From IMG/VR virus record IMGVR_UViG_3300024264_000133, positions 1 through 28,321 of that record: a DNA stretch of 28,321 nt; one strand, 5' to 3'. Shown here in pieces: positions 2-15,936 of this stretch (within the stretch, counting starts at the first letter, position 1; the number at the start of each line of letters is the position of its first letter). Origin of the DNA: a virus. Lineage: Duplodnaviria; Caudoviricetes. The notes beneath the pieces were generated by a model that worked only from the letters and a program-made list of their open reading frames with translations, did no database searches and was not told the DNA's origin. The translations under genes were made by a program, and so were the position numbers.

Positions 2-2428
2 ATCTCCAAATATATTTAAGGCCGAACCTGTAGGATTAGTACCAATAAGTGAATTATCTCCTATTACTACATTACCAGAATCAAGAATAGATATTCTTTT
101 TGTTCCTTCATCAGTTTGAAATGCTAATCCATTACTATCGTGTGCAATTAAATCTGTTCCTTTTAGTGAACCAGCAACATGGAGTTTAGCTGTTGGAGAT
201 GTTCCACTAGGAAGTCCGATTGCAACGTTACCTGAAGAACCTTCAAATATGGCCATAAGTCCTTCTTTTCCGTCTCCAACTCTAAAGGACCTATATCTTG
301 TAGTACCATTTTGATAGCCTCGATAATTTACCCATAAATCTGCAGCATCGTTATCATATCCATATCCACCATTAATTGTATTTTCATGGTTTGGAGATAT
401 ATATATAGAAGCTGCGTTTGATGGTCCAAAAAGAACACCTATACCATCTCCAACATGCAGTCCCATAACTGGACTACTTACAACATCACTTCCAATTCCT
501 ACCTTTCCGTCACTATGAATTCGCATTGCTTCTGTAAATGAAACATCATTGCCTGCAGTTCCTGACCCGGCAACATAAAATTCGTGTCTTCCGTTTGATA
601 ATCCTAAAGCAGCTGCATAATTACTTTCAATATATTTATTTGTATTTGATGTTGTATCATAATAGAAGTTTGCTCCAATAAACGTACTACCGGCATTGTT
701 TACATATATAGAACCAGTATCTAACTGTAACGCAGTCATGGAACCGTCCCAGGCCGATGGAATTACTCCAATTCCAACGTTGCCTGAACTATCAATACGC
801 ATTGAGTCGCTAGTACCAATTTTCCAAGCATGACTTGCGGCTCTAGTTTCTGAGTTTATATAAACAGCAGCAGTTGGGTCATAGTGCTGTGTTAAATTAG
901 TGTCTGTAGATAGTTCAGGAAAGAATTGTATTTGTGAATTTGCACCATCACAAATTGCAAATTTAGAGCCTGTAGTTGTGGTATGTCCAATTGCAACATT
1001 GCCTGATGAATCAATACGCATGGCTTCTTCTGTATTAGTGCCACCTGAAGCTGTATAGAACAACATATCAGAAGCATTTGAACCTGTGTTATAGGTTGAC
1101 CTTATGCTTATGTTTCCATATTTAGCTGCATTGTAAATTTCTCTGTAGCCTTCTAATAAAAACTCTGTTCCATTTGCACCTGTACTATCTCCTACTGAAA
1201 CATGACCTCCTAAAATTGATAGCTTTTCTGAAGGACTATCAGTTCCAATTCCAACGTTGCCATTGCCATTAACGACTAAACGTGGAGTTCCAGAACTTAC
1301 ACCAATTGTTGCACCTGTTCTAAGTTCTAAATTACCATCTATATTTACTATAGCATTAGTCCTAGTTGAATCTTTAAAGAATAATCTTGAAGATGCGGCA
1401 GAATTAGACGTGTCTTGATTTAATATTATTCCAGCAATCCCACCTGTAGTTACATCTAATTTGGTGTCTGGCGAAGTTGTTCCAATTCCAAGCGATTCAG
1501 CACTTGCATCCCAAAAGAACTTAGCTGTAGAGCCTGTATCTTCGTAGAAGCTGATGTCTCCTGTATTATTGAATTTAGCAACACTTTTGCTGTTTACTTC
1601 AAAAAGATGATAGCCTGAACCAAGAGCAGAAATATGTTTATAAGCACCACTACTTGATACCTGAACAGAACTAGCACCAAAAGAATCAACACTTAATGAA
1701 CCAGCTCCTGTATTTACAACAACATCACCATCAACAGTCAACCCATCCATTGTGGCTGTACCTGTTACATTTATGCCTTTATTAAAATCAAACTCATCAT
1801 TACTTTCATCCCATAGAAGACTTGCTCCCGAGCCGTCTACAACAATACCTGAACCACCAGAACTTGCTTCGTTTTGTCCTGCTCCCAGTGTAATTGTTTG
1901 GTCTGTAACATCTAAATCTGTTACTGAAACAGTATTTAAATCGCCAGTAACATTTATATTTCCAGTAACATTTATATCTGCAAAAGTTGGAGAAGCTGAA
2001 GTTGCTACGCTTTGTCCTATACTTATTTCTCCGCCAGAATAAGTTACACCTGTACCCGCACTTAAATGAGCTCGTACTTCTGCAGCACTTGGCCCAGTGT
2101 ATGTTATAACTCCATTACTGTATGCTAAAGAGCCATCTCCTCCAGAGTCAGTAACGCTTATATGAGCTCGTACTTCAGAGGCACTTGGCCCTGTGTATGT
2201 TATAACTCCAGTGCTATTATCATATGCTAAAGAGCCATCTCCTCCAGAGTCAGTGATACTGAAAGAAGTTCTTGCTCTCGCAGTAGTAAAGTAAAGATTT
2301 GAAGAACCTTCACTTACAGCATCCGTATCAATAGAGGATAAATGTGCTGAAGATATTGCGCCCGATGAGATATGCGCACTTGTAATTGCGTTGTCTGATA
2401 TTACTCCTGATTTTATTTTAGTTGTCAT
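2..2428 (-). CDS. Modular tail fibre protein, 3' end outside the window (>=809 aa; absent from ORF track)
   Basis: ATG at 2428 (MTTKIKSGVISDNAITSAHISSG...) preceded by GAAGGATAAAAA. The same frame reads sensibly at the left edge (...SGNVAIGLPSGTSPTAKLHVAG...). Shares SEGSxNLYFTTARA, VTGTATMDGLTV, ISFYEDTGSTAKFFWDASAE and GNVGIG linkers with the other fibres. Confidence 0.9.
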   Translation of the reverse strand, partial: MTTKIKSGVISDNAITSAHISSGAISSAHLSSIDTDAVSEGSSNLYFTTARARTSFSITDSGGDGSLAYDNSTGVITYTGPSASEVRAHISVTDSGGDGSLAYSNGVITYTGPSAAEVRAHLSAGTGVTYSGGEISIGQSVATSASPTFADINVTGNINVTGDLNTVSVTDLDVTDQTITLGAGQNEASSGGSGIVVDGSGASLLWDESNDEFDFNKGINVTGTATMDGLTVDGDVVVNTGAGSLSVDSFGASSVQVSSSGAYKHISALGSGYHLFEVNSKSVAKFNNTGDISFYEDTGSTAKFFWDASAESLGIGTTSPDTKLDVTTGGIAGIILNQDTSNSAASSRLFFKDSTRTNAIVNIDGNLELRTGATIGVSSGTPRLVVNGNGNVGIGTDSPSEKLSILGGHVSVGDSTGANGTEFLLEGYREIYNAAKYGNISIRSTYNTGSNASDMLFYTASGGTNTEEAMRIDSSGNVAIGHTTTTGSKFAICDGANSQIQFFPELSTDTNLTQHYDPTAAVYINSETRAASHAWKIGTSDSMRIDSSGNVGIGVIPSAWDGSMTALQLDTGSIYVNNAGSTFIGANFYYDTTSNTNKYIESNYAAALGLSNGRHEFYVAGSGTAGNDVSFTEAMRIHSDGKVGIGSDVVSSPVMGLHVGDGIGVLFGPSNAASIYISPNHENTINGGYGYDNDAADLWVNYRGYQNGTTRYRSFRVGDGKEGLMAIFEGSSGNVAIGLPSGTSPTAKLHVAGSLKGTDLIAHDSNGLAFQTDEGTKRISILDSGNVVIGDNSLIGTNPTGSALNIFGD
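2067..2254 (-). repeat. Two tandem coding repeats TDSGGDGSLAY..GVITYTGPSA.EVRAH
   Basis: Near-identical copies at about 2067-2152 and 2163-2254; both contain atgctaaagagccatctcctccagagtcagt. Confidence 0.85.
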
Positions 2429-2431
2429 TTT

Positions 2432-2494
2432 TTATCCTTCTAACTCCGTTATTCTTGATTTTAAATCGTCTATTATTGTTTGTTGTTTTTTCAT
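2432..2494 (-). CDS. 20-aa mini-ORF MKKQQTIIDDLKSRITELEG, copy of the S74 chaperone C-terminal coiled coil
   Basis: ATG immediately follows the TAA of 2495..4126, in frame. 2450-2487 is identical to 10531-10568. Its last codons hold the GAAGGA SD of the next gene. Translation is not proven. Confidence 0.6.
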   Translation of the reverse strand: MKKQQTIIDDLKSRITELEG

Positions 2495-4126
2495 TTAAGT
2501 TTTAGTCCTTGATGTTACTGAATCAACAGTAAATGAAATAGTAGAATCAATAGCAAATCTACAAAACCCAGACACATATGCATAAGAGCCTTGATGTTTT
2601 ACAATTAATTCATATTGACTGCTGCTTATTCTGTTAACAGAAAAACCACTACTATCAGGATTGTAGTTTGCATTAACTAATGTTGTTCCTACTACTGGTG
2701 ATTGCGAATAACCTATCATACAGGCTTTAGCAAAACCTCTTCTTGTAGTTTCTGAAGTAGAAGCAAAGTGTGTAGAAAAGAAAAAAGTACCCGAATTAAA
2801 ATTACCAATAGTTATAGTAATAACGTACTCATCAGTTGTATTTAGACCTATTCCATAAGTATCATTATAATAATTATCTGTTCTAATATTTCCATCAATA
2901 TGTAATTTTGTATCAGGACTTGTAACTCCAATTCCAACATTGCCTGAAGAATTAATACGCATTCTTTCTGCAGTTCCTGTTCCAAATCTCATACTATCAT
3001 CTTGGTTTTCGTATTCTATAAAACCTGCATAACCTATTCTGTCTCCAAAGTTTATTACTGGATTTGCATTTGTTGCATAAGATTTTAAATTTAGGGAAGG
3101 CTCTCTAGCACCATTATCTTCACCTGTTTCAATAGTAATACCAACATCACCTGTTGCTGCATATACATGAAGTTTATCAGCAGGACTAGTCGTTCCAATT
3201 CCAACTTTGCCTGCTGAATCAAGAGTCATATTCGCACTTGCAGATGCGTTAGTTCTAAAACTAAATGCGTTATCGCTATGTGAATAACCTATTTGTCCTC
3301 TAAATCTATCATCACCACTTGCACCATCAGCAAAATAAATAACACCTGAATTTGCAGTTCCTGAATATATAGTCATACCTTCAGTACCACTACCAGTACC
3401 TATAACTAAATTGTTAGCACCACCATCCATACTTGATGCAACAGTATTTCCAATAGAAACCGAGCCTGAAGAATCAACTGTAACTTTACGTTCAGGAGTA
3501 CTACCTGTCCATATTTGTACAGAGGCATCTCCTCCAAGAGCTAAATTACCACCTGAAACGCCTTGTGCATCAGCTCTTATATGATAAAAACCATTAGCAT
3601 CCATGTAATGTTGACCATATAAAGTAGTAGAGTTATATCTAAGTGCTAGTGTATTATTTGAGCCATTCCCTGTTCCAATAGTTCCATGTTGAATTTCTAA
3701 TGTGTTTGCTGGATTTGTTAATCCAATTCCAACTCTATTATTTGTAGCATCAACAACTAAAGTAGAAGTATCAAAAGTAACATCACCCGTAAAGTCTGGA
3801 CTTGCTAATGGTGCTTTAGTCGCAATACTATTCGTTACAGTAGTACTAAAACTTGCATCATCTCCAAGTGCTGCGGCTAACTCATTTAAAGTATCTAAAG
3901 TTGAAGGAGCGCTATCAGCTAAATTCGCTATTGCTGTAGATACGAAAGCTGTACTTGCAACTGTAGTATCATTGTCTCCGGCAGAAGCTGTCGCAACAGT
4001 AACTGTTTTACCTGTAAGGTCTAAAGTTGTATGTAATTTAGCCGCAGTTATACTAGAGTCTGAAAGACTGTCTGTTGTTACTGCACTCGTTGCTATTACA
4101 TCTGCTGTTATCTTCTGTATTGCCAT
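2495..4126 (-). CDS. Modular tail fibre protein (543 aa), unrecognised C-terminal tip domain
   Basis: N-terminal TLNELAAALGDD motif typical of P2 gpH/COG5301-type fibres; three VGIG-linked modules; no S74 domain. Confidence 0.88.
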   Translation of the reverse strand: MAIQKITADVIATSAVTTDSLSDSSITAAKLHTTLDLTGKTVTVATASAGDNDTTVASTAFVSTAIANLADSAPSTLDTLNELAAALGDDASFSTTVTNSIATKAPLASPDFTGDVTFDTSTLVVDATNNRVGIGLTNPANTLEIQHGTIGTGNGSNNTLALRYNSTTLYGQHYMDANGFYHIRADAQGVSGGNLALGGDASVQIWTGSTPERKVTVDSSGSVSIGNTVASSMDGGANNLVIGTGSGTEGMTIYSGTANSGVIYFADGASGDDRFRGQIGYSHSDNAFSFRTNASASANMTLDSAGKVGIGTTSPADKLHVYAATGDVGITIETGEDNGAREPSLNLKSYATNANPVINFGDRIGYAGFIEYENQDDSMRFGTGTAERMRINSSGNVGIGVTSPDTKLHIDGNIRTDNYYNDTYGIGLNTTDEYVITITIGNFNSGTFFFSTHFASTSETTRRGFAKACMIGYSQSPVVGTTLVNANYNPDSSGFSVNRISSSQYELIVKHQGSYAYVSGFCRFAIDSTISFTVDSVTSRTKT

Positions 4127-4129
4127 TTT

Positions 4130-4423
4130 TTATATTCCTGCGTTCTCGTTTGCTGTTTTCTTAGCGTTCTTAATTTCTGTTGTCCATACAGCATTTGCAA
4201 TACCTTGGACTTCTGTAGACTCGCCTGATATATCTGTATCTGTATGAGTCCAACTATCGTCATCATTCTTTACAGAGCTTACACATTCTAATGTGTGTCT
4301 ATGAAAAGACCTATTTAACTCTACATCATCTTCTTTGATAACTGTAGCAGTACGAATTTGTATAGCTTTATGCTCTCCTACAATTTCGATTTTATCATCT
4401 ATTAGTTCTTTTGTTATTGCCAT
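4130..4423 (-). CDS. Small conserved phage protein (97 aa), putative fibre-associated or assembly partner
   Basis: AGGAGA SD upstream. DKIEIVG..KAIQIRTATVI.ED..EL.RSFHRH resembles proteins I recall downstream of DDYEEGTWTP-ending fibres. Function is inferred from position. Confidence 0.8.
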   Translation of the reverse strand: MAITKELIDDKIEIVGEHKAIQIRTATVIKEDDVELNRSFHRHTLECVSSVKNDDDSWTHTDTDISGESTEVQGIANAVWTTEIKNAKKTANENAGI

Positions 4424-4443
4424 TCTATTTTCTCCTATGTCCG

Positions 4444-4463
4444 TACCTAGAATCCACTAGGTA
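4444..4463 (-). promoter_or_regulatory. Intergenic hairpin just upstream of the 97-aa gene RBS
   Basis: Minus strand reads TACCTAG-TGGATT-CTAGGTA (7-bp perfect stem), then CGGACAT-AGGAGA. No U-tract follows. Confidence 0.5.
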
Positions 4464-4472
4464 TATTAGTTA

Positions 4473-6713
4473 TTAAACTTTGTAAGTGGCTGTTCCTCTT
4501 ATATCAACAGAGTTATTATGTGATGCCTCTAATTCACCATAAACTGTATAATCAAAGTTTTGTTCATTTATATTTATTAATCTAATAAAAGTATCACCAT
4601 CAACTAAAATAGTTGTTAATGTAGAGTCATTTGGAGTGTAATATCTTGCATATATTGCCCCTGCTCCATTACTATCTATAGTAAAAGGTAGTCCACTTAT
4701 TTGAACTTGTGCTGAACTTGTAGGCATTCCACCAGTAGAAACTATATGATAATGAACAGTAACTTGATTACCAATTTTTGTATAATGACCTGTAGCAGTT
4801 GTTAATGTAGCTCCACCAAAGCCCGGTGTCCAAGTACCTTCTTCATAATCGTCAAGTGCGTTAGCTGCTGCTGTGTCTCCGTTAAAGGTTAAACCACCAG
4901 CACCAAGAAATCTGCCCATCTCGCCATCATTTCCTGCAAAGACAATATCACTTCTTGATACGATTGCTAGATTATTTTTTGCGTTACTTGCAGTATCATA
5001 AGTACCTATACCATTAACAGTTATAGTTCCATCTTCAGGTCTTTTAAGACCTATAAAAGAACCCTTAGTATTAACATCTGCAATTTTTGATGAATCTATA
5101 TAAGCACTATTTTCTGCACCAGTAATCTTTACACCATCATTAGTACCTGTAGTAAAAGTTGTGCTACCAGCACTATCAATCTGCATTTTCACATCATTAT
5201 TTGCTATAAATCTAACACTGTGGTTTGTAGTAGAGCCAAAAAATACTGCTCCACCATCTGAAACTTCATATTTTGCTGTAATATCTCCACCAAAAGCTCT
5301 TCCCTGTAATTCTAACTTTGCTGGTTCATAATCTGCTGTACCACCATCAACTATAATTGTTCCATTACCAGGCTTAAATGTTATATCACCAGTAGAACCT
5401 ATGTTAAGCCTAGTTGCATAGTTTGCATTATTAGCATCGCCTTGTTGTATAGATAAATCATTACCTGCATCATTTTGTAAAAATCTAAAACCGTAAACAC
5501 TTGGTTTATCAAACTCTAAAACACCATCTGAAATTCTTACATTACCTGCAACATCTAATTTACTTAAAGGACTACTCGTTCCAATTCCAACATTTCCGTC
5601 ATTAGTTATTCTGAGTCTCTCAACTCCATTTGAACCACCATCAGTTTGAATTACAAAATCAGCGTCATTAGTTCCACCACCCTCAACAAATCCTACTACT
5701 CCATCACCTGAACCTGTCCTAAAGTTTATTAATGAAGCAGTATTTGAACCTCCATGTGTATTATTAAGATAAAGCATACTGTTAGCAGGAGTTGCACCAT
5801 AACCTGATGTTGAATAAGTTGTGGCAATACTATTATCTATGGTTAATTTAGCAGTAGGACTACTATTTCCAATTCCAACTTTACCACCATCAATTGTTAC
5901 ATCTGTTCCACCATCAGCACCAGTTCCAATAAGAAGTTTATCATCATTGTGAGCGTAAGCTATAAATCCTGCGTATTGGTTGTTCCCTGATGTTCCATCT
6001 GCAAAATGAAGTCTACTTAGAGAGCTATTACCTGCATAAATTGTTATTCCTTGATCGCCTGTACCACTACCTACTACTAATTGAGATGCTCCTGAAAACA
6101 TAGATGATGCATTAGTAGTTCCAATTCCAATATTGCCTGAACTATCAATAGTAAGTCTTCTTGTATCAGCTGTTGTTAATGATAATGCATGAGAAGTTGT
6201 TGTGCCAAATTCCATATCAGTAGTTGCATCAGCATAAATTATTTTTGCTGCTACTGCTCCACCATCTCTCCTAAATTCTGCTAATGTTTCATCTTGTCCA
6301 GATGTATATGTACTTGAAAACACAGGTGAATCTAAAGGTGCTTTAGTAGCAATACTATTCGTTACAGTAGTACTAAAACTTGCATCATCTCCAAGTGCGG
6401 CTGCTAACTCATTCAGTGTGTTTAAACTTGAAGGAGAACTATCAACTAAAGCTGCAATCTCTTGTTGAACAAAAGCTGTTGAAGCTGGAGAAGTATCACT
6501 ATCCCCTGTGGTCGCCGTTGCGACAGTAATTGTTTTTCCTGTTAAGTCTAGTGTTCCTGCAAGTTTTCCTGCGGTTACACTTAAGTCAGCAAGTTTGGCA
6601 GTAGTAATATTACCATCTGTAATTTTGGCAGCAGTAATCGCATTGTTTGCAATGTCTACGGTTGCGATATCGCTATCTTTTATTAGATTTGTTGTAATTC
6701 TTTTTATTGCCAT
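4473..6713 (-). CDS. Modular tail fibre protein (746 aa) with a DDYEEGTWTP-type C-terminal domain
   Basis: ITAAKI repeats, TLNELAAALGDD motif, three GIG linkers, C-terminal ANALDDYEEGTWTP...YTKIGNQV...ISGLPF domain. Confidence 0.9.
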   Translation of the reverse strand: MAIKRITTNLIKDSDIATVDIANNAITAAKITDGNITTAKLADLSVTAGKLAGTLDLTGKTITVATATTGDSDTSPASTAFVQQEIAALVDSSPSSLNTLNELAAALGDDASFSTTVTNSIATKAPLDSPVFSSTYTSGQDETLAEFRRDGGAVAAKIIYADATTDMEFGTTTSHALSLTTADTRRLTIDSSGNIGIGTTNASSMFSGASQLVVGSGTGDQGITIYAGNSSLSRLHFADGTSGNNQYAGFIAYAHNDDKLLIGTGADGGTDVTIDGGKVGIGNSSPTAKLTIDNSIATTYSTSGYGATPANSMLYLNNTHGGSNTASLINFRTGSGDGVVGFVEGGGTNDADFVIQTDGGSNGVERLRITNDGNVGIGTSSPLSKLDVAGNVRISDGVLEFDKPSVYGFRFLQNDAGNDLSIQQGDANNANYATRLNIGSTGDITFKPGNGTIIVDGGTADYEPAKLELQGRAFGGDITAKYEVSDGGAVFFGSTTNHSVRFIANNDVKMQIDSAGSTTFTTGTNDGVKITGAENSAYIDSSKIADVNTKGSFIGLKRPEDGTITVNGIGTYDTASNAKNNLAIVSRSDIVFAGNDGEMGRFLGAGGLTFNGDTAAANALDDYEEGTWTPGFGGATLTTATGHYTKIGNQVTVHYHIVSTGGMPTSSAQVQISGLPFTIDSNGAGAIYARYYTPNDSTLTTILVDGDTFIRLININEQNFDYTVYGELEASHNNSVDIRGTATYKV

Positions 6714-6714
6714 A

Positions 6715-9700
6715 TTATAATCCTGCCTCGTCTAATCTTGCTTTTAAATCGTCTATTATTGTTTGTTGTTCTTGCATAGCTTTTATTAAGTAGGGTGTAA
6801 GTTTTCCGTAATCAACACCCCAAGGTTCTTCATTAACATCCTCTCCACCTTCTTGAACTACATTAGGTATTACCTCGTTTAATTCTTGTGCAATCACACC
6901 AACTTCATGATGACCATTTTTTATCCAATCAAACTCTCTAATTTGTATATTGTTAATTACGTCCAATTGAGAAGAAGCATCTACAATATTTTCTTTCATT
7001 CTTCTGTCAGAAGATGTATTGTAAGATACAGTTGTTCCACTTGCTGCTGATACAGAACCCATAGTGCTATTACTATCGCTAAATCTTATAAATTGACCTC
7101 CAGTAGCATCAGTATCATTTTTAAATTGAAGCAACTGAATTAGATTTGAAGAAGCAACTGAGACATCAGTATCAAAAAATCCTACTATTCCACCAAACCC
7201 TGCTGTATAACCACCACCAGCAACTTGCAATTTACCATAAGTAATAAAGTCAGAAGTCATATCGCCTATTAATACATTTTTATTACTCTGAAGAATCATG
7301 GTTGGTGTTGAGCTTTCGTTAAATGTAAAGTGTATGTCTCCACCACCAACGCCTGTACCTTGATTGATAATTAATCTTCCAACGCTTCCATTTAAAAAAC
7401 TATAAATAAAAGAACTTGTTGCACTAGAATCACCAGCGCTTAACCAAAGACCACCACCAACTGAACCATTAATAACAGTTGTAGTTATATTAGTACCTAT
7501 AGACCTGTCTGCTGTACTTCCGATACCTACGCAGCCTGATGTATGGATACGCATTCTTTCATTTGCACCATTCGTGTTAAATGTTATTCTATTTGCTGAT
7601 TGTATTAGCAAAGGGTCAGTATCAGATTGAATTGTTGCATTGTCATTATCAGTAAATAGCATCATTGACCTAGCGTTATCTGCTCTTGATAATTTTAGTT
7701 TACCACCAGCACCAATTTCTAATGCTTGGTCTGGGTCTGTAATTCCAATTCCAACATTTTTGTTATCTAATATAATCATAGCTGGTGTCTGACTATTTGC
7801 AAAAAGGTCAATTGTAGGTGAGTTGACCATGAACTGCATACCAGTTGTATTATCATAACCAATACCAGCATAAGCATCTGTACTATACTCACTTTGGAAA
7901 ACCATTACAGGAAAATTGTGGCGTAAAAGCAATGAACGTCCCCACCCACCTGACATAGCAGTTCCACCATTTATTTCTAAAGGTGCGTTTGGACTACTCG
8001 TTCCAATTCCAACGTTGCCTGAATTATGGTCAATAACTAAATTATCAGATGTATTACCTGCGAAAGTTAAAGCACCACTTGTACCAAGACTTCTATCGTT
8101 TTGTATGGTAAATGTACCATTAGTTGTTTTAATTTCTAGCCTTGCATCATCACTAGATTCTGAACCATTTGATTCAATACGAGCAACTGCATCATCTGCA
8201 TTTACTATATGAAATTGAGTTGCAGGACTACTCGTTCCAATACCTAATCTTTCAGCACTTGCATCCCAAAAGAACTTAGCTGTAGAGCCTGTATCTTCAT
8301 AAAAGGAGATGTCTCCGTTGGAGGCTATGTTCAACCTATCTTTAAGTGCTGTACTGAACCCTGTTGTCGTTTTAAATCTTAATGATGTAGAGCCTACAGT
8401 GTCCTCGGAGTAAGTGTTTATTCTAGCCTTAACGCCCACGTTTGAGTCGTCATTAGAGTAGAAATCAATACCGCCAAGACTTTCTCCAGTGGATAGGGTT
8501 GTCGTGGTAGATTCAAGTTTTAATGTTGCACTAGAACTAGCCTGAACAGTCAAACCATCCATTGTAGCTGTACCAGTAACGTCTATGCCCGTGGAGGTGG
8601 TGGCTAGTTTGGGGTTACCCGCATGATATAAAATAACTTCTGCACCTGTATTCGCTGCAAGAAAATTTTGTGTTCCACTTGCTCTTTGTAATTGTAAATT
8701 ACCTGCTCTTATTAAAAGATTCCCTGTACCAGTTTCATCAATAAAACTATTACTTCCATCATGATAAATCTGTAAATCTCCTCCTACTGCTGAACCTACT
8801 TCTAGTCTAACATTATCACCAAAACTTAAATCACCAGTCATAGTACCGCCAGCTAATGGTAATTTTGCAGCAATACTTGCATTTACAGTAGTACTAAAGT
8901 TAGCATCGTCGCCTAAAGCTGCTGCTAATTCATTTAATGTGTCCATCGCAGCGGGTGCGCTATCGACCAAAGAAGTTATTTCTTGTCGTACAAATGCAGT
9001 CGAAGCTACAGAAGTATCATTGTCTCCTGCACTTGCTGTTGCAACTGTAACTGTTTTTCCAGTCAAATCTAAAGATGAAGCAAGTTTTGCCGCAGTTACA
9101 TTGGCATCCGTTATCTTTGCTGTCGTTACAGCATCGTCTGCAAGGAAGCCCGTTGTTACTGTTGCCGCATTCATTGAACGTGTAACTAATACTTCAAGTG
9201 ACATTCCCGAAGTAGGAACTGCGTCTAAAGTCAAAGTGCTTCCACTGTAAGTATATGAAGATTTTGGCTGATATACTCCATCAACAAAAACGAAAACATT
9301 ATTTTCATTTTCAGTCGTTAAACTTGTGTCATAGGATGCGGTATTTGATGTAGTTACGTTGTACTGACCTAAGATAGCATCCGTTGGATTGTATGTTGAA
9401 ACCGTTCCAGTGATTACCTCTAAATCTTCCCCATTTGGTAAATTTTCTGAAAGTGTAATTTCTGTACCACTGAAACTATATGTTGATTTTGGCTGGTACA
9501 CACCACCTATAAATACCCATGTATTGTTTTCTGATTGTGGATTCTTACCTGTGTCATAAGTAGCAGTACTACCATTTCCAGTTGCAGTATATAAGTCTAC
9601 GCTTGAAGTTGTGTCTCCGCCGATAGCACCCCAAGCACTATTTGCATACCCTTCAAATTCATTAGTGCTAGAATTATATCTTAACATTCCATTTGCAGGT

Positions 9701-10512
9701 GAGCCACTTCTTTGTGCTGTTGTACCTGAAGGAACTTTTACTGAATCTGTACCGCTTAGTGTTAAATTCTGGAAAGTGGGACTTGTAGATGTCGCAACAT
9801 CTTGTCCAATAGAGATAGCTCCGTTTGATACAGTAACTCCAGTACTTCCTGAAAGTCTACCATCAATTGCTGAGTTTGCTCTTGCTGTTGTAAAGTATAA
9901 ATTTGTAGAGCCTTCGCTTAAGTCGTCTGTGTCTGCTGCTGCGATACGTGCATCTGCTCTTGCATCTGTGTAGTATAAGTTTGTGTTTTCTGCAATGTTT
10001 GCTGTTGTTAGAACAACTACTCCAGTTGCACTGTTTACAGACTCTACGCCTCCGCCTACATCTGCCCAAGCTGAGCCATTGTATATTTCAGGCTTACTTG
10101 TAGTAGTATTAAATCTTAGTTGTCCTTGTGCTGCTGTTGGTCTTTGTGCTGTTGTACCAACTGGTATTTGTAATGACCCAGTAGTATTGATTATTAAATC
10201 ACCAGTCATTGTTCCACCAGCAAGTGCCAGTTTAGTTGCTATACTGTTTGTTACTGTAGTACTAAAACTCGCATCATCCCCGATTGCAGCTGCTAATTCA
10301 TTGAGTGTATTCAGTGCGCTTGGTGAACTATCTACAAGAGCAGCTATTTCTTGCTGTACGAAAGCTGTTGAAGCTACTGTAGTATCATTATCTCCAGTAC
10401 TCGCTGTTGCAACAGTAATTGTAACTCCTGATAAATCAAGGGTGCTGCTAAGCTTGGCTGCTGTTATTGCGCCATCTGCTATATATAATCCTGGTACTGT
10501 TGTTTTTGCCAT
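6715..10512 (-). CDS. Modular tail fibre protein (1265 aa) with C-terminal peptidase S74 intramolecular chaperone
   Basis: Two TLNELAAA(I/L)GDD modules, two GTTAQR...LR(F/Y)N modules, two VF..GVYQPKS.Y beta-rich repeats. C-terminus SDRRMKENI...GVIAQEL...VDYGKL..YLIKAMQEQQ is the S74 signature, as in T5 pb1 and K1F endosialidase. Confidence 0.92.
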   Translation of the reverse strand: MAKTTVPGLYIADGAITAAKLSSTLDLSGVTITVATASTGDNDTTVASTAFVQQEIAALVDSSPSALNTLNELAAAIGDDASFSTTVTNSIATKLALAGGTMTGDLIINTTGSLQIPVGTTAQRPTAAQGQLRFNTTTSKPEIYNGSAWADVGGGVESVNSATGVVVLTTANIAENTNLYYTDARADARIAAADTDDLSEGSTNLYFTTARANSAIDGRLSGSTGVTVSNGAISIGQDVATSTSPTFQNLTLSGTDSVKVPSGTTAQRSGSPANGMLRYNSSTNEFEGYANSAWGAIGGDTTSSVDLYTATGNGSTATYDTGKNPQSENNTWVFIGGVYQPKSTYSFSGTEITLSENLPNGEDLEVITGTVSTYNPTDAILGQYNVTTSNTASYDTSLTTENENNVFVFVDGVYQPKSSYTYSGSTLTLDAVPTSGMSLEVLVTRSMNAATVTTGFLADDAVTTAKITDANVTAAKLASSLDLTGKTVTVATASAGDNDTSVASTAFVRQEITSLVDSAPAAMDTLNELAAALGDDANFSTTVNASIAAKLPLAGGTMTGDLSFGDNVRLEVGSAVGGDLQIYHDGSNSFIDETGTGNLLIRAGNLQLQRASGTQNFLAANTGAEVILYHAGNPKLATTSTGIDVTGTATMDGLTVQASSSATLKLESTTTTLSTGESLGGIDFYSNDDSNVGVKARINTYSEDTVGSTSLRFKTTTGFSTALKDRLNIASNGDISFYEDTGSTAKFFWDASAERLGIGTSSPATQFHIVNADDAVARIESNGSESSDDARLEIKTTNGTFTIQNDRSLGTSGALTFAGNTSDNLVIDHNSGNVGIGTSSPNAPLEINGGTAMSGGWGRSLLLRHNFPVMVFQSEYSTDAYAGIGYDNTTGMQFMVNSPTIDLFANSQTPAMIILDNKNVGIGITDPDQALEIGAGGKLKLSRADNARSMMLFTDNDNATIQSDTDPLLIQSANRITFNTNGANERMRIHTSGCVGIGSTADRSIGTNITTTVINGSVGGGLWLSAGDSSATSSFIYSFLNGSVGRLIINQGTGVGGGDIHFTFNESSTPTMILQSNKNVLIGDMTSDFITYGKLQVAGGGYTAGFGGIVGFFDTDVSVASSNLIQLLQFKNDTDATGGQFIRFSDSNSTMGSVSAASGTTVSYNTSSDRRMKENIVDASSQLDVINNIQIREFDWIKNGHHEVGVIAQELNEVIPNVVQEGGEDVNEEPWGVDYGKLTPYLIKAMQEQQTIIDDLKARLDEAGL

Positions 10513-10584
10513 TTATCCTTCCAATATTTCTATTCTTGATTTTAAATCGTCTATTATTGTTTGTTGTTCTTGTATAGCTTTCAT
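10513..10584 (-). CDS. 23-aa mini-ORF MKAIQEQQTIIDDLKSRIEILEG, copy of the S74 chaperone C-terminal coiled coil
   Basis: ATG at 10584, two bases after the TAA of 10587..14282; its TAA abuts the ATG at 10512. 10540-10572 is identical to 6742-6774. Translation is not proven. Confidence 0.6.
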   Translation of the reverse strand: MKAIQEQQTIIDDLKSRIEILEG

Positions 10585-10586
10585 AA

Positions 10587-13500
10587 TTAACCTAATAAAT
10601 AACCTTTAAACCAAGTATGATTATTATTTGCTAAAATTGTTACACTTGTAGAACCTGAATAATAAGGATGATATCTTACTTCATCTCCAGCACTTAACTT
10701 AACTATATGTGTTGTAGAAATAAACAAATCACCATCATTGCCCATCATATCTGTATAATCTGCTCTAGCACCATTAACAGCCAACCATGCTTGACTCCAA
10801 TTAGTACCAGCAGTACCACTGTAAACAGAGCCTTGAATTAAATATGTTCCATCTACTGGTGCAGTAAATATACCTGTAGTGACATTAAAATCGCCGCCTA
10901 TATCGTATATCTCGCTATTATATCTAACACCATCTCCATAAGAACCACTTGCATTGTAACCTGTTTGATTTCCACTTCTTCTTGCTAAAAAATTACATTG
11001 TGTAGGTTTTGTTACGTTGCCATCGCTGTGAATACGCATTGTTTGTTTAAAAGTATTAGCACCACTACGATTTTCAAAAACAATTTGATTACCATCAGCA
11101 CCTGCTCCATAAGCCTTTAATACGACACTTCCACCATATTGGTCTACAGCATTACCCCCTAAATATATTGAAGCACCTGAACTGCTATTATCTGCAAAAG
11201 TAGGAGTAGTTATAGATTCACCATTAACAACACCAGCAGTTAAAAATAATCCTTGTGAACCTGTTGGTGCAAGAGACCTACTTATTACAGGAGTTGTACT
11301 TGCACTTGCTCCAACATGCACAACACCTCTAACATCAAGTTGTGTCACAGGACTATCAGTTCCAATTCCAACTTTGCCTGAAGTGTCTATGACTAATCTC
11401 TCTGTTCCTGCTGTATGACTATAAATTGCAAATTTATCGTTAGTTTGACAGTTTAAATCCCAATCATGAGCATCATTTTTTAATCTTAAAGAAGCACTTG
11501 AGTTAGTTCCAGCTTGTATAGTTATGCCTTTGTTACCTGACGGATTACTTGTCCCAATTTGAACATTGCCATCAGAAAGAATACGCATTCTTTCTAATGA
11601 GTTTGTATAGAAAGCAGCATATGCACCTGTGCCTGTTTCTGTAGCAGCACCTATGGCTAAACTTCCGCCACCTATTCTGTAGATAAAAGGACTATCCTGA
11701 TTAGTTGGAAAAGCACCTGATTTAAATAATACAGTTCCTGATGAGTCTATTCTCATTGATTCTGTACCACCAGTAAATAATCTTAAATCTCCATTAGGAA
11801 TAACTATAGCTGGAGTGTTTTCATTAAGAGTTAAATTATTTTCAATTTGAACCTCACCATTAACATGAAGCGTTTTTGAAGGACTATCAGTTCCAATTCC
11901 AACTTTGCCTGATGAGTCTATTCTAAGTCTTTCTGTTAAAGCTGTTGCAGAAACACTTGCTCTAGTTGAAAAGCATAAATCTCCTACTGTATTAGTAGAA
12001 CCATCTAGAACATGACCTTTAATAGCTGCAAAAGGCGTTTTATTTCCAAAAGTAGTACCAAAAGCTACAGCACCACCACTACCTGCTGCATTAGCGGTAG
12101 CTCTTAAATATAAAGTAGCTCCGTGATTTCCTGAGTCTGTAAGGTTTGCTGTGTCTTGGTCAAGACCTTCAATATATGTTTTGTAAGAATTTGTAAATAT
12201 ACTCGTTCCAATTCCAATATTTTCATTACTATCAATTGTTATAGCTGTAGCATCTGCATTATCATCAATACCTGTTGAGGTAAACCCTGTAAGAGTTCCA
12301 ACACTTGTAATATTGGGCTGTGCTGATGTAGATAAAGTTGCTGTTAGATTTCCAAAAAATTGAGCAGTACCATCACTAAATAATGTAAAGTCTGTTTGCC
12401 CTTGTCTGCCTATTCTAAAATCATCTTGAGATACATCAAGTCTATAAAATTCATAAGTACTATCATAGTCTGCTGCGGTATCTAATCGAATTTCTCCCCC
12501 TTCAGCACTTCCAGTAGCTCCACCACTAATTTCTATAATTGCAGCGTTATTATCTTCTGTTCCAATAACTAAATTTCCTGTAGTTGTTAATCCTGTAAGC
12601 GTACCAACGCTTGTAATATTAGGTTGTGCTGCTGTTCCTATTGTAGCGTCCACTGTCTTATTAAAAACAAACTTATCCCCTGAAGAAGCATATAGAAGTG
12701 TAGCACTTGCTCCATCTATCGTAAGACCTGCACCATTCGCTGCGGCTGCATTTGCTGCTCCACTTGCTAATGTTAAATTTAGATCGTCTACTGACATAGA
12801 AGTAGAGTTAATTATTGTCTGTGTTCCATCTACTTGTAAGTTACCTGCAATAACAACTGTTCCTGTGTTATTTCCAACTCCTGCAGGGTCAATCGTAAAA
12901 GAAGCCGGCCCAGCTATGTAACCACCTACAGTTAAGTTACTTGTTAAACTTACGCTGTCTGGTAGTCCTACTGTTACTGTTTGGCCAGACACAGAAGTAT
13001 TTACTTCGTTTGCTGTTCCTGAAACTGTAAGAGTTTGGCTTGTATTTACTGTACCTGTTCCACTATCTCCTGCTAAACCTGTCTCAAAATCTTTTCCATC
13101 AACGTAATCTTTTACTGCTGCTGAAGTAGGTAAAGTAGTATCATTATCGTTTGAAGATATACCTTCTGATTCTGTTACAAATACTGCGTCAGCAATCTTA
13201 TCTAAAGTTACTGCGTCATTTGCTATCTTTGCTGTAGTAACATTTGCATCAGCTATCTTTGCTGTAGTAACATTTGCATCAGCTATCTTTGCTGTTGTTA
13301 CTGCACTACTTACTAGTTTAGCACCTGTAACACTATCATCAGCCATTGAAGCTGTTACAACAGAACCTGCTGCTGGAGTATTGACAGTTGTAGAAGTTAA
13401 CATTACGACTTCTATATTTGCTGTACCAGTTGGGGGCGCACTGCTAAATGTTAGAGTAGTACCGCTTACACTATATGTTGTTTTTTGTTGATATACACCA

Positions 13501-14282
13501 TCTATATAAACTTGAGTATTGTTTTCATTTCCTGGATTATTAGAGAGTGTAAAAGCTGTTGTACTCCCGTTACCATCAAAGTTACTTATAAGTACACTTT
13601 CTCCACTATATACATCGCCTATTACATATATAACTACATTATTTGTTCCAGATATTGGAGCAGTATCAAAAGTTATGTCTGTACCACTTATTGTATAAGC
13701 GTCTTGATTTTGAAATACACCATTAATAAATGCTATAATCTTTGACTCTGCACTCGGTGTACTAGAAAGTGTAAAAGTTGCTGTACTACCGTTACCACTT
13801 GCTATATTAGTAGCAAAAGCATTTGCAGAAGCAGCTCCTCCTGTTGGAGTCTCAAAAGTAAGAGTACCGCTACCATCTGTAGTTAGTACTTGGCCGTCTG
13901 TTCCGTCTGTAACGTTAAGCTCAGAGATACCTACAGCGTTTGCCGCAATTTCTGTAGATGTTACTGAGTTGGCTGATAAGCCTGAGATTGTTGCTGTAGA
14001 AGCACTTGTTATTCTTCCATCTGCATCGATAGTAATAACTGGTATGGCACTTGTAGACCCATAAGAACCTGCTGTTACTGCTGTTGAAGCTAGTTCTGTA
14101 GGGCCGATTGAATTTGCTCCTACTTCCCCTATTGTAACTATTGATTCTGTTCCACTTACATCTTTCTTAATAAATAACTTACCATCATAAGTATTAATGG
14201 CGATTTCGCCAAGTGCTAAAGAAGATGTTGAAGGTACTGCATTTTGAGTTGCAGACCTTTTTAATTTAATCGTTTGTGCCAT
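10587..14282 (-). CDS. Modular tail fibre protein (1231 aa) with C-terminal C1q-like domain
   Basis: N-terminus IKLKRS...P....LALGEIAIN..DGKLF resembles the T4 gp37 N-terminus. Two GNGST..FTL...V.Q...Y..SGT repeats, VTTAKIADAN repeats and GIG linkers. C-terminal YDIGGDFN..TGIFTAPVDGTY...VKLSAGDEV...FKGYLL is C1q-like. Confidence 0.9.
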   Translation of the reverse strand: MAQTIKLKRSATQNAVPSTSSLALGEIAINTYDGKLFIKKDVSGTESIVTIGEVGANSIGPTELASTAVTAGSYGSTSAIPVITIDADGRITSASTATISGLSANSVTSTEIAANAVGISELNVTDGTDGQVLTTDGSGTLTFETPTGGAASANAFATNIASGNGSTATFTLSSTPSAESKIIAFINGVFQNQDAYTISGTDITFDTAPISGTNNVVIYVIGDVYSGESVLISNFDGNGSTTAFTLSNNPGNENNTQVYIDGVYQQKTTYSVSGTTLTFSSAPPTGTANIEVVMLTSTTVNTPAAGSVVTASMADDSVTGAKLVSSAVTTAKIADANVTTAKIADANVTTAKIANDAVTLDKIADAVFVTESEGISSNDNDTTLPTSAAVKDYVDGKDFETGLAGDSGTGTVNTSQTLTVSGTANEVNTSVSGQTVTVGLPDSVSLTSNLTVGGYIAGPASFTIDPAGVGNNTGTVVIAGNLQVDGTQTIINSTSMSVDDLNLTLASGAANAAAANGAGLTIDGASATLLYASSGDKFVFNKTVDATIGTAAQPNITSVGTLTGLTTTGNLVIGTEDNNAAIIEISGGATGSAEGGEIRLDTAADYDSTYEFYRLDVSQDDFRIGRQGQTDFTLFSDGTAQFFGNLTATLSTSAQPNITSVGTLTGFTSTGIDDNADATAITIDSNENIGIGTSIFTNSYKTYIEGLDQDTANLTDSGNHGATLYLRATANAAGSGGAVAFGTTFGNKTPFAAIKGHVLDGSTNTVGDLCFSTRASVSATALTERLRIDSSGKVGIGTDSPSKTLHVNGEVQIENNLTLNENTPAIVIPNGDLRLFTGGTESMRIDSSGTVLFKSGAFPTNQDSPFIYRIGGGSLAIGAATETGTGAYAAFYTNSLERMRILSDGNVQIGTSNPSGNKGITIQAGTNSSASLRLKNDAHDWDLNCQTNDKFAIYSHTAGTERLVIDTSGKVGIGTDSPVTQLDVRGVVHVGASASTTPVISRSLAPTGSQGLFLTAGVVNGESITTPTFADNSSSGASIYLGGNAVDQYGGSVVLKAYGAGADGNQIVFENRSGANTFKQTMRIHSDGNVTKPTQCNFLARRSGNQTGYNASGSYGDGVRYNSEIYDIGGDFNVTTGIFTAPVDGTYLIQGSVYSGTAGTNWSQAWLAVNGARADYTDMMGNDGDLFISTTHIVKLSAGDEVRYHPYYSGSTSVTILANNNHTWFKGYLLG
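13222..13295 (-). repeat. Perfect 30-bp tandem repeat (about 2.5 copies) encoding VTTAKIADAN
   Basis: gctatctttgctgtagtaacatttgcatca at 13222 and 13252, with a partial copy at 13282. Confidence 0.95.
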
Positions 14283-14304
14283 ATTTATGGATTTCCTTTT
14301 CTAT

Positions 14305-14316
14305 GCGTATATACGC
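14305..14316. promoter_or_regulatory. Perfect 12-bp palindrome GCGTATATACGC in the intergenic gap
   Basis: Lies in the 46-bp gap upstream of the 1231-aa fibre. Flanking TTTCC/GGAAA could extend the stem over the AAGGA SD. Confidence 0.5.
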
Positions 14317-14328
14317 GGAAACTAATTA

Positions 14329-15936
14329 TTAGGAGAATGTTCCTCCATCTATTGTGTTTGTCCAAGTAACTGTACTGTTTGCTCCGACTTGTAACATTTG
14401 TCCTACACTATTTGTAGAATCATATGTTCCAATTGTTAGTCTTTGATAACCAGTATTTGCTCCATTTGTATTACCAAATATTAAGTCACCAGTTGCTGTT
14501 TGTGTAATACCTTTAATTCTTAAAGCATCTGAACTTATTTCTAATGATTGTCCATCTACTTCTACATCAAGAGTATTTCCAGTCTTGGTCATACCTGTAC
14601 CAGCAGTTATTTGACCAGCACCTGAGAATTGAGCAAAAGCAAGAGCAGTTGAACCTACTGTAATACTTCCATCTGTTGTTAGTACAAAACCACTATCAGC
14701 ATTTACGCTACCTTCTGTTACGAAAGTAAACATACCTGAAGTAACTTCTGCATTAGCATCAGCATCTGTAGCTCTTGTCATTGCAGAGCCAGAACCATTA
14801 AATACGTAAATACCGTTTTCTGCGCCTGAAGATTGGTCTTTTACAAGTACTCTGTCATCACTAGAAAGAGTTACACCATCGATTGCTGCTGGTGCGCTTG
14901 ATAAAGAAATATTTGAACCTGTAGTAGCAACTCTTACCGAGTCTTTAAAGTCTAAACCAACTTTAACTGCATCTACATATTCTTTTGATACTAAAGAAGT
15001 GGCTCCAAAACCTGATCTATCTTTATATCCTGATGGAACTGTTACTGTTCCTGTACCATTTGGTGAAAGTGTTAAATTACCGTTTGAATTTGTTGTAGAA
15101 ATATCATTACCATTTACAGTAACGTTGTCTACTGCTAATGAAGTAACTCCTGTTATATCTCCACTGCTTATACTTGCTGTACCGTCTGTAAATGTTGTAG
15201 CAGTAATTGTAGTACCTGTTATAGCTGCTGCACTAGCGCCGCCTATAACTGCACCATCAATAGTACCACCATTAATATCTACAGTAGTTACTGAACCACC
15301 GTTTGATACTGTAGCACCTGCAAAGTTTATTGTACCTGTGCCTGTTAAATTTGTGAATGTACCTGCTGCTGCAGAAGACCCACCAATAGTAGCACCATCA
15401 ATAGTGCCTCCATTAATATCAAAGTTTGTACCTTCTATTTCTACAGAACCTGCTTCAAGTTTTTTACCTAATGTTATTTTTTCAGCAGAGTTTGTGGAAT
15501 CAAATGTTAAATATGAAGTAACACCTTCTTTGATAGCAAATGCATTTGCATTGTTATCAATCATAACAATTTCTGTAGCTTGGCTGCTTACATCAATAGA
15601 ACCACCTGTTAAGTCTAAATCTAAATCAGCTGCTGCAACTATTTGAACATTTCCTGAACCGGCAGTAATAGAGTTAGCACCTATAGTAAGGTTTGCTGTT
15701 TTTAACTGGTCTATTTTACTACTTGAGTCTACAATGATTGCTGAACTAGCAGTTAAAGTACCTGCTGTATGGTCGAGCATATTTACAAATAACTCACCAC
15801 CTATGATATCGTTAGCAGAGCCGTCACCTATAAATAGTTTACTGGAATTAAACGAATAGGCTAGTTCACCCGCAGCTAGGGCGCTACCAGGAGCTGCCGC
15901 GCTACTACTTCTTTTGATTTTGATTGTTTGTGCCAT
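14329..15936 (-). CDS. Fibre-like virion structural protein (535 aa)
   Basis: MAQTIKIKRS...LAAGELAY N-terminus is paralogous to the 1231-aa gene. Two DINGGTIDGA.IGG repeats. DFKDSVRVATT...IDGVTL...DRVLVKDQ...ENGIY domain is common in phage fibre proteins. Confidence 0.85.
   Translation of the reverse strand: MAQTIKIKRSSSAAAPGSALAAGELAYSFNSSKLFIGDGSANDIIGGELFVNMLDHTAGTLTASSAIIVDSSSKIDQLKTANLTIGANSITAGSGNVQIVAAADLDLDLTGGSIDVSSQATEIVMIDNNANAFAIKEGVTSYLTFDSTNSAEKITLGKKLEAGSVEIEGTNFDINGGTIDGATIGGSSAAAGTFTNLTGTGTINFAGATVSNGGSVTTVDINGGTIDGAVIGGASAAAITGTTITATTFTDGTASISSGDITGVTSLAVDNVTVNGNDISTTNSNGNLTLSPNGTGTVTVPSGYKDRSGFGATSLVSKEYVDAVKVGLDFKDSVRVATTGSNISLSSAPAAIDGVTLSSDDRVLVKDQSSGAENGIYVFNGSGSAMTRATDADANAEVTSGMFTFVTEGSVNADSGFVLTTDGSITVGSTALAFAQFSGAGQITAGTGMTKTGNTLDVEVDGQSLEISSDALRIKGITQTATGDLIFGNTNGANTGYQRLTIGTYDSTNSVGQMLQVGANSTVTWTNTIDGGTFS

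Follow-up and report, generated by a model that had tools for sequence, protein, structure and literature searches.

The Peptidase_S74 domain is a self-cleaving intramolecular chaperone found at the C-terminus of phage fibres and spikes, for example K1F endosialidase and T5 pb1. Here we describe a 28,321-nt stretch of viral DNA (Duplodnaviria; Caudoviricetes), the entire linear IMG/VR virus record IMGVR_UViG_3300024264_000133 (hereafter the window), in which an element of ∼70 nt encoding the last helix of this domain is found three times. One copy (6715–6783) is the end of a fibre that bears the domain, and the other two follow fibres that lack it, as ATG-started mini open reading frames (mini-ORFs). 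These orphans are homologous to the last helix, yet at 17–23 codons they lack any catalytic or fold-forming portion of the domain, and we count them as fragments of it rather than as members of the S74 family. The stretch occurs in public runs from seawater, estuaries and other marine metagenomes, and we therefore regard its source as an uncultivated marine phage. None of the 24 runs listed in a search of DNA runs is on record as RNA.

Several described systems are comparable. In T-even phages, short conserved motifs in the distal tail-fibre genes reportedly recombine, swapping adhesin specificity (work attributed to Tetart and colleagues, 1998). The locus described here is similar in that its variable receptor-binding segment lies between short conserved coding stretches, at which mosaic breakpoints are located. 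As in other cases of module exchange, one short sequence is found next to unrelated tips and unrelated downstream genes, and in one locus (L188) the motif itself is chimeric. Unlike in the T-even phages, the right-hand motif is the end of a cleaved-off chaperone plus the ribosome-binding site of the next gene, and a tip that no longer uses that chaperone can still be followed by this motif as a mini-ORF in its own right. Translational coupling by termination-reinitiation is also known between tightly packed phage genes. The TAAATG, ATGA and TAATG arrangements at the mini-ORF ends resemble it, but translation of the mini-ORFs is putative and there is no RNA structure that would make coupling necessary. 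Finally, distant Alteromonas phages reportedly exchange host-recognition modules consisting of a fibre and its cognate chaperone (PMC10579305). Fibre tips in both cases move with whatever lies directly downstream, which is a working chaperone gene there and a 60–72-nt fragment here. Short conserved motifs as fibre crossover sites are thus known already, as are dead folding-helper fragments at fibre 3′ junctions. Orphaned S74 tails as ATG-started mini-ORFs, or their reuse, were not found described in the abstracts returned by full-text searches or in passages of one 2026 preprint.

We interpret the mini-ORFs as orphaned 3′ ends of S74 coding sequence that were left behind, or carried along, when S74-less receptor-binding tips recombined into fibre genes, and that likely still act as homology patches for later crossovers between tips and downstream genes. 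We give this reading a probability of roughly 0.65. Labels such as L004 or L185 denote the fetched related loci and contigs with which the window was compared.

The last helix of an S74 chaperone recurs behind two S74-less fibres

The features that matter most for the argument are these, in 5′ to 3′ order on the minus strand.

Fibre A: 10587–14282, minus strand; 1231 aa, with a C-terminal C1q-type tip and DUF4183, no S74 (Pfam); PHROG tail fibre
Mobile C1q tip cassette: 10587–11044, minus strand; left edge at the shaft-repeat motif MRIHSDGNV (∼11013–11039)
Orphan S74 tail 1: 10513–10584, minus strand; ATG-started mini-ORF of 23 aa, MKAIQEQQTIIDDLKSRIEILEG, containing GGAAGGA (10516–10522)
Fibre B: 6715–10512, minus strand; 1265 aa, with a C-terminal S74 intramolecular chaperone domain (Pfam part ∼6856–7011)
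True S74 tail: 6715–6783, minus strand; KAMQEQQTIIDDLKARLDEAGL and stop, the end of fibre B, 1 nt upstream of the fibre C ATG
Fibre D: 2495–4126, minus strand; 543 aa, S74-less, zero Pfam matches
Fibre D private tip: ∼2495–2923, minus strand; starts past the last RMRINSSGNVGIG repeat
Orphan S74 tail 2: 2432–2494, minus strand; ATG-started mini-ORF of 20 aa, MKKQQTIIDDLKSRITELEG, containing GAAGGA (2435–2440)
Fibre E: 2–2428, minus strand; 809 aa in the window, running off its left edge, downstream of orphan tail 2

An exact 29-mer occurs at 2459–2487, 6742–6770 and 10540–10568, always in one orientation, and none of 100 shuffles gave such a match. Repeat finding in the window grouped the copies into a family of 60-nt units that are 87% and 80% identical. 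An initial annotation of this DNA had reported the 29-mer and two ATG-started mini-ORFs of 20 and 23 aa behind S74-less fibres, and the frames, starts and stops are as it claimed. The exact runs that it gave are readable directly from the sequence: the mini-ORFs agree with each other over 38 nt, and the copies at 10540 and 6742 over 33 nt. The GAAGGA Shine-Dalgarno (SD) sequences that it assigned to the next genes do fall within the mini-ORF ends, as GGAAGGA and GAAGGA. It had further counted on identity at synonymous sites. This identity is present, but it is weaker evidence than assumed, since the exact 27-nt coding allele of the window is the commonest in the population (36/124 loci). For the same reason, the perfect identity of the three copies is weak evidence of anything special in this genome.

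Both mini-ORFs are tightly fitted between their neighbours. Mini-ORF 1 starts 2 nt past the fibre A stop codon (TAAttATG), and its own TAA (10513–10515) adjoins the ATG of fibre B (TAAATG); mini-ORF 2 starts immediately after the fibre D stop (TAA-ATG), with its TAA 3 nt ahead of the fibre E ATG (TAAaaaATG). The ∼70-nt element comprises the last chaperone helix, an SD-like GGAAGGA and a stop codon that adjoins the next start codon. Its protein consensus is KAIQEQQTIIDDLK[ST]RIETLEG, followed by the stop.

The identity of the helix rests on fibre B, the only protein with a Peptidase_S74 match (aa 1168–1219, E 3.5e-13, 50.1 bits against a gathering cut-off of 22 in Pfam). No Pfam S74 match was obtained for fibres A and D, the two that lie ahead of the orphans; the C1q domain of fibre A spans aa 1114–1230 (E 5.4e-8, Pfam). 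The last 161 aa of fibre B match PDB entries 8jov (E 5.8e-5) and 6f45 (E 0.0093). Because these alignments continue to the very C-terminus of each chain, what the repeat encodes is the final helix of the chaperone, and the earlier description of the 6742 copy as the true end of an S74 chaperone is borne out to the extreme C-terminus. The mini-ORFs contain no cleavage site or fold and correspond solely to residues past the Pfam domain. By homology in both DNA and protein to the last helix, they are orphaned S74 tails.

The same arrangement is present in a second, non-identical contig (hereafter the sister contig). It shows 19 mismatches to the window in one alignment of 11,693 nt (99.84% identity) and none in a further 7,113 nt (100%), and its gene order agrees with that of the window at each of the three copies. 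The arrangement is therefore not an assembly artefact. Logan contigs from the two runs that best hold the stretch break at all copies (at 2458, 6745/6760 and 10543/10550, where pieces begin or stop), because graphs built with k=31 cannot cross a repeat of 33–38 nt, and they neither bridge nor contradict any join. Contigs from two further runs gave joints with short sides only.

The tail is a conserved seam between tips and downstream genes

A search of IMG/VR with a degenerate nucleotide pattern that codes for QQTIIDDLK matched at least 122 loci (L004–L125). Among the 122 matches listed, 99 end a long S74 fibre ORF, with no stop codon in the preceding 100 codons or more, and 13 are interrupted by the end of the contig or locus. 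The remaining 10 have a stop less than 100 codons upstream: seven orphans, two of them (L074 and L076) from the 48.7-kb sister contig, and L019, L047 and L082. L019 was rejected as an orphan, the match being due to chance. In L047, the S74 domain begins with an in-frame TGA (nt 349–351) immediately behind ...YYDSSS, after which the frame continues with RYKENVKDL and stays open to the conserved tail; this TGA could be a sequencing error or a readthrough site, or could mark a fibre physically split from its chaperone. L082 (∼nt 1400–1600) has a 37-aa fusion ORF with a MAxTYTW-like start, the end ...QQTIIDDLKARIDASEE and GC-richer codons, followed by a terminator-like hairpin. Genes of the MAxTYTW family often lie downstream of these fibres.

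The window and 704,112 nt of fetched loci were also scanned with an nhmmer profile of the tail, which yielded 150 hits at E up to 10. It added a single orphan, in L185, and none of the hits was frameshifted or contained an internal stop. In L185, the orphan tail (1262–1329) and the true S74 tail (2910–2978) both read TIIEDLK rather than TIIDDLK. This hints at exchange between copies inside one genome, although multi-copy contigs are too few to say more.

At the protein level, the tail is much better conserved than the remaining S74 domain. There is nonetheless variation at its synonymous sites, where the consensus base has a frequency of 0.54–0.97 over 91 unique windows.

We compared the flanks of the tail among 67 loci with at least 600 nt on each side. 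Dereplication left 57 loci, hence 1596 non-independent pairs, and each pair was extended without gaps from the motif. In 35 of the 1596 pairs, at least 200 nt of downstream homology was kept and upstream homology was lost within 47 nt (mode 15 nt). The converse was seen in 12 pairs, with at least 200 nt kept upstream and homology lost 12–67 nt past the motif, and only three pairs kept both flanks; there is some circularity in this statistic, given that possession of the motif was the criterion by which every locus was selected. The downstream start common to L004, L029, L032, L034, L036 and L056 is found behind at least five different tips. In this marine phage group, the tail is a conserved seam at which the variable tip ends and the downstream gene begins, and the pattern of flanks shows that tips and downstream genes reassort freely there.

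One C1q tip is followed by three different tails

The C-terminal tip of fibre A provides the closest view of the seam. Relatives of this C1q tip were found at two loci in IMG/VR and at four in a metagenome scan, the sister contig included. The last 152 residues of fibre A, from MRIHSDGNV on, are 90% identical in L185 and 82% identical in the metagenome contig L188. Window positions 11044–10500 and L185 have 89.4% nucleotide identity, and the protein alignment starts at MRIHS[DS]GNVTKPTQ; the C1q tip of L185 is mounted on a shaft that otherwise resembles fibre D. In the 2-kb contig L188, the C1q tip (∼nt 1578–1713) is split over two reading frames, reflecting either an assembly error or a frameshifted copy.

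The window, L185 and L188 have the 5′ junction in common: the TAA of the tip, TT, and then ATGAAAGCT... (ATGAAAGCTATACAAGAACAACAA). From there, the mini-ORF of the window goes on ...TIIDDLKSRIEILEG and leads to fibre B, that of L185 goes on ...TIIEDLKSRIQVLEA and leads to a gene starting MANTKITS, and that of L188 goes on ...EQIETLQREVQELKE and leads to a gene starting MAIQKIPN. The L188 orphan is chimeric. Its 5′ 32 nt are those of the window junction and its 3′ half comes from a second tail family, KAIQEQQEQIE..., which is found as true S74 ends in L196, L168, L177 and L023. Between the window and L185, the mini-ORF has no differences in its first 32 nt and all 10 in its last 40 nt, a 3′ rate above the divergence of the tip (∼10.6%; binomial P 0.0076). 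That the same tip and 5′ junction are joined to different 3′ halves and downstream genes points to crossovers inside the orphan tail, which is the simplest reading of the differences among the three loci.

Orphan tails occupy five classes of junction

The orphans fall into five junction classes, each with an in-frame ATG that adjoins or overlaps the upstream stop codon.

J1: behind the C1q tip, in the window, the sister contig, L185 and L188
J2: behind the fibre D tip, in the window and the sister contig
J3: behind an S74 tip of a different lineage with its own end ...LIKEIQSLRNRVAQLEE, in L026 and L089
J4: behind an S74-less tip ending ...KVIVEPTK, in L044
J5: behind a related tip ending ...EPLKRVIEDE, in L114 and L116

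Stop and start overlap as ATGA in L026 and L044 and as TAATG in L185. Pattern searches for both window-type junctions returned known contigs only and no further orphans. Comparisons between loci are also in line with crossovers at the tail. L114 and L116 have the tip and the orphan in common and differ in the downstream gene. L114 and the window, conversely, have the orphan and the start of fibre E in common (87% over 329 nt, from 2490 on) and differ in the tip. L172/L044 is syntenic with L177, the former carrying an S74-less tip plus orphan where the latter carries a true S74 end. The fibre D tip itself has its sole other occurrence in the sister contig, and relatives of fibre D align only to ∼aa 405–434.

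Possible signs of translation and selection

The geometry of both mini-ORFs is that of a relay ORF, with the start codon at the upstream stop and the stop codon at the downstream start. Moreover, a Met within the six codons before QQ is present in just 14 of the 78 unique true tails, compared to an ATG in all five orphan junction classes. A role of the mini-ORFs in termination-reinitiation relay is plausible on these grounds. Between the window and L185, the mini-ORF shows 6.0 synonymous and 4.0 non-synonymous differences (P 0.0043 versus neutral proportions), a skew that would be expected if the 3′ halves are imported from true tails, which are under protein constraint. Between window 2432–2485 and L114, the differences are 1.5 synonymous and 4.5 non-synonymous. 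The ATG common to the five junction classes is less easily explained away. None of the evidence demonstrates that the mini-ORFs are retained for evolvability.

We also looked for regulatory elements in the tails. An RNA element was rejected, as the three junction folds are no better than shuffles and Rfam gave no match at E up to 1 in 2000–11000. A simple scan placed no promoter or terminator in the tails, and its total counts were at or below shuffle expectation.

The tail is dispensable for tip exchange

A number of results weigh against our reading of the mini-ORFs, the most direct of which come from the closest relatives of fibre A. L127–129 have 96% aa identity to fibre A residues 1–573, and L130/131 match residues 1–986 (best segment 81% identity). 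Their tips are other S74-less ones, followed by an ORF of 72 or 95 aa and no tail; these small ORFs appear helper-like. Nucleotide homology to the window halts at 12601 (or 13098) and resumes at 10514, 2 nt before the fibre B ATG. Since it resumes only there, the tail belongs to the variable cassette in these swaps, with homology on the right provided by the next fibre gene. In L174, whose tip is akin to those of L044 and L114, only ∼31 nt separate the stop from the next ATG (∼nt 3241–3275). The gap reads stop, then AAATAAAGCTATTGAAAGGAGG..., and the ATAAAGCTAT string is kept where the tail would begin; the core of the tail thus appears to have been deleted, leaving a probable vestige. The distant C1q tips of L189 and L190 (52–53% identity) lack the tail as well. 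In a crude census of fibre ends, 216 ORFs reduced to 133 fibre-like ones and then to 100 unique by their last 40 aa, with sister-contig loci left out; 36 of the 100 had no S74-type tail by regular expression, though ∼9 of the 36 have other tail types by eye. Just two of the 36 are followed by the tail, and one by the vestige.

Other points on the same side concern how the evidence was gathered. Besides its partial circularity, the pair statistic draws on pairs that fall into a few clusters. The search pattern demanded an intact motif, so that decayed orphans are under-sampled, which the nhmmer scan corrects in part. The ATG at each junction could derive from the start of the donor's downstream gene, although an in-frame state would still have a chance of 1/3 per junction (P 0.004–0.012). 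Lastly, no RNA structure occludes the next start at the three junctions (minimum free energy −8.1, −1.7 and −4.7 kcal/mol; z −0.34, +1.22 and +0.62 versus shuffles). Because the junction RNA is unstructured, relay translation is plausible but not necessary.

We conclude that the tail is dispensable, not obligatory, for tip exchange. The initial annotation had expected the same fibre N-terminus to occur with alternative tips that all end in this sequence, and had named its loss or decay in relatives as an outcome that would speak against it. L127–129 and L130/131 carry tips without the tail, which is present only as a vestige in L174. The data support its interpretation in part. The proposal of an exchangeable cassette bounded by a GIG linker on one side and the tail on the other fares better on the left, where the C1q cassette has its edge at MRIHSxGNV, a unit of the GIG repeat. 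Left breaks also fall elsewhere, at other motifs such as AAQPNITSVGTL; the break in L127 comes directly after this sequence and not at a GIG repeat. Similarly, the S74-less tip plus orphan has behaved as a mobile unit in the C1q case, having moved among shafts and downstream genes, with a chimeric orphan in L188, but the tail is not a general or required 3′ boundary of such units.

A motif in the shafts bears on the left edge. AQPNITSVGTLTG recurs at fibre A aa 553 and 655 and in the downstream gene of L185, and the L127 homology break follows directly after it. It is a candidate for a further crossover motif besides the GIG repeat.

Other features of the window

The long ORFs of the window are all on the minus strand, and all five long proteins, fibres A–E, match PHROG tail-fibre families. 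A megablast of window 2000–14500 against the GenBank phage collection gave zero matches. Two further genes lie between fibres B and D.

Fibre C: 4473–6713, minus strand; 746 aa
97-aa ORF (phrog_6228): 4130–4423, minus strand

Positions 4424–4472 (minus strand) hold a second conserved 3′ junction, just past fibre C, in which a hairpin-like inverted repeat, ACCTAGTGGATTCTAGGT, is followed by the 97-aa ORF. L168 and L179 have nearly the same junction following two other, different S74-less fibre ends. It is terminator-like on the plus strand in a simple scan, and has a high summed contig depth in two other metagenomes. It may have the same seam role as the S74 tail.

The interior of fibre B at 8853–9126 resembles the N-terminal module of fibres B, C and D (10221–10494, 6332–6605 and 3805–4078), a repeat family (D1) with 64–73% identity among copies. 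With this module also in its middle, fibre B looks like two fibres fused head to tail.

Two known routes to fibre variation were considered. A diversity-generating retroelement was rejected: the 535-aa protein at 14329–15936 scores 23.5 bits for Mtd_N, below the cut-off of 26.3, and the window contains no reverse transcriptase. Nor does the locus resemble a shufflon or invertible cassette, as the three copies of the tail are direct repeats and the 15 ORFs scanned contain no recombinase domain in a window that may not be the whole genome.

A model for the origin of the mini-ORFs and its alternatives

The simpler reading that the initial annotation had set beside its own, that the mini-ORFs are scars of tip replacement, turns out to be the better description of their origin. 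We regard them as recombination scars that travel with tips and are reused as short homology patches; no dedicated device is seen. The process might begin with an S74-less tip, with its own stop codon, becoming joined just upstream of an S74 tail. Tip and tail would then move as a unit, by a left-hand crossover in the shaft repeats (RMRIxSxGNVGIG for the C1q cassette) and a right-hand crossover in the tail or at its end. Crossovers with true tails would take place in register, so the mini-ORF would stay open and look conserved because of them, with no need for a function of its own. In the last and least certain step, the in-frame ATG at each junction may allow ribosomes to be handed to the next fibre gene by termination-reinitiation.

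A stronger version of this model would make the S74 tail a population-wide standard connector, in which an ATG-started relay mini-ORF is selected both for translation of the next gene and for right-hand homology. If so, tips of any fold would be portable between fibres once equipped with a copy of the tail. We hold this only tentatively, and think it on the whole improbable.

It is unlikely, too, that the mini-ORFs are simply neutral recent scars with no role in recombination or translation, which will decay. The alternative cassettes of the closest relatives do without the tail, L174 keeps a vestige, and the tails lack RNA structure, an Rfam match and any promoter-like or terminator-like site, all of which fit neutral scars. 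Such scars would not, however, account for one tip and 5′ junction being joined to three 3′ halves and three downstream genes, for a mini-ORF 3′ part more diverged than the tip, or for L114 and L116, where tip and orphan are held in common and the downstream genes differ. Also, the scan of 704 kb of related loci yielded no orphan with a frameshift or internal stop.

Selection for functional peptides of 20–23 aa, e.g. a free coiled-coil helix that aids trimerisation or a relay peptide, is in our view very unlikely. In its favour are the in-frame ATG at all five junction classes, a stop that always adjoins the following start codon, and the synonymous skew between the window and L185. The skew, however, is what import of 3′ halves predicts, and L188 shows such an import; the comparison with L114 leans the other way. 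Furthermore, contexts that have a tip in common differ widely in peptide sequence, L174 has lost the element, L127 and L130 lack it, and the C1q-type tips of distant relatives do without it.

An assembly chimera at the short repeat, which the initial annotation had named as a hazard, is almost certainly not the explanation: none of the Logan pieces listed for the two best runs bridges any of the three copies, where all contigs break, but the second contig has the same order across the copies, L127–131 keep the order fibre A–fibre B, L114 keeps orphan–fibre E, and a 38-nt repeat is shorter than ordinary reads.

Implications

Since short-homology recombination and leftover fragments at module boundaries are familiar in phage genomics, the reading we prefer, scars reused as homology patches, reveals no new mechanism. 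It does carry a warning for annotation, in that ORFs of 20–23 aa behind fibre genes can be domain fragments rather than new genes. Tail-fibre tips decide which hosts can be infected, and their natural exchange has mostly been inferred from mosaic patterns. The mini-ORFs likely mark a common splice point for tip swaps between related phages. Here the seam itself is visible, as a piece of ∼70 nt in more than 100 contigs of uncultivated marine phages, and it provides a concrete, testable junction for the study of natural fibre exchange.

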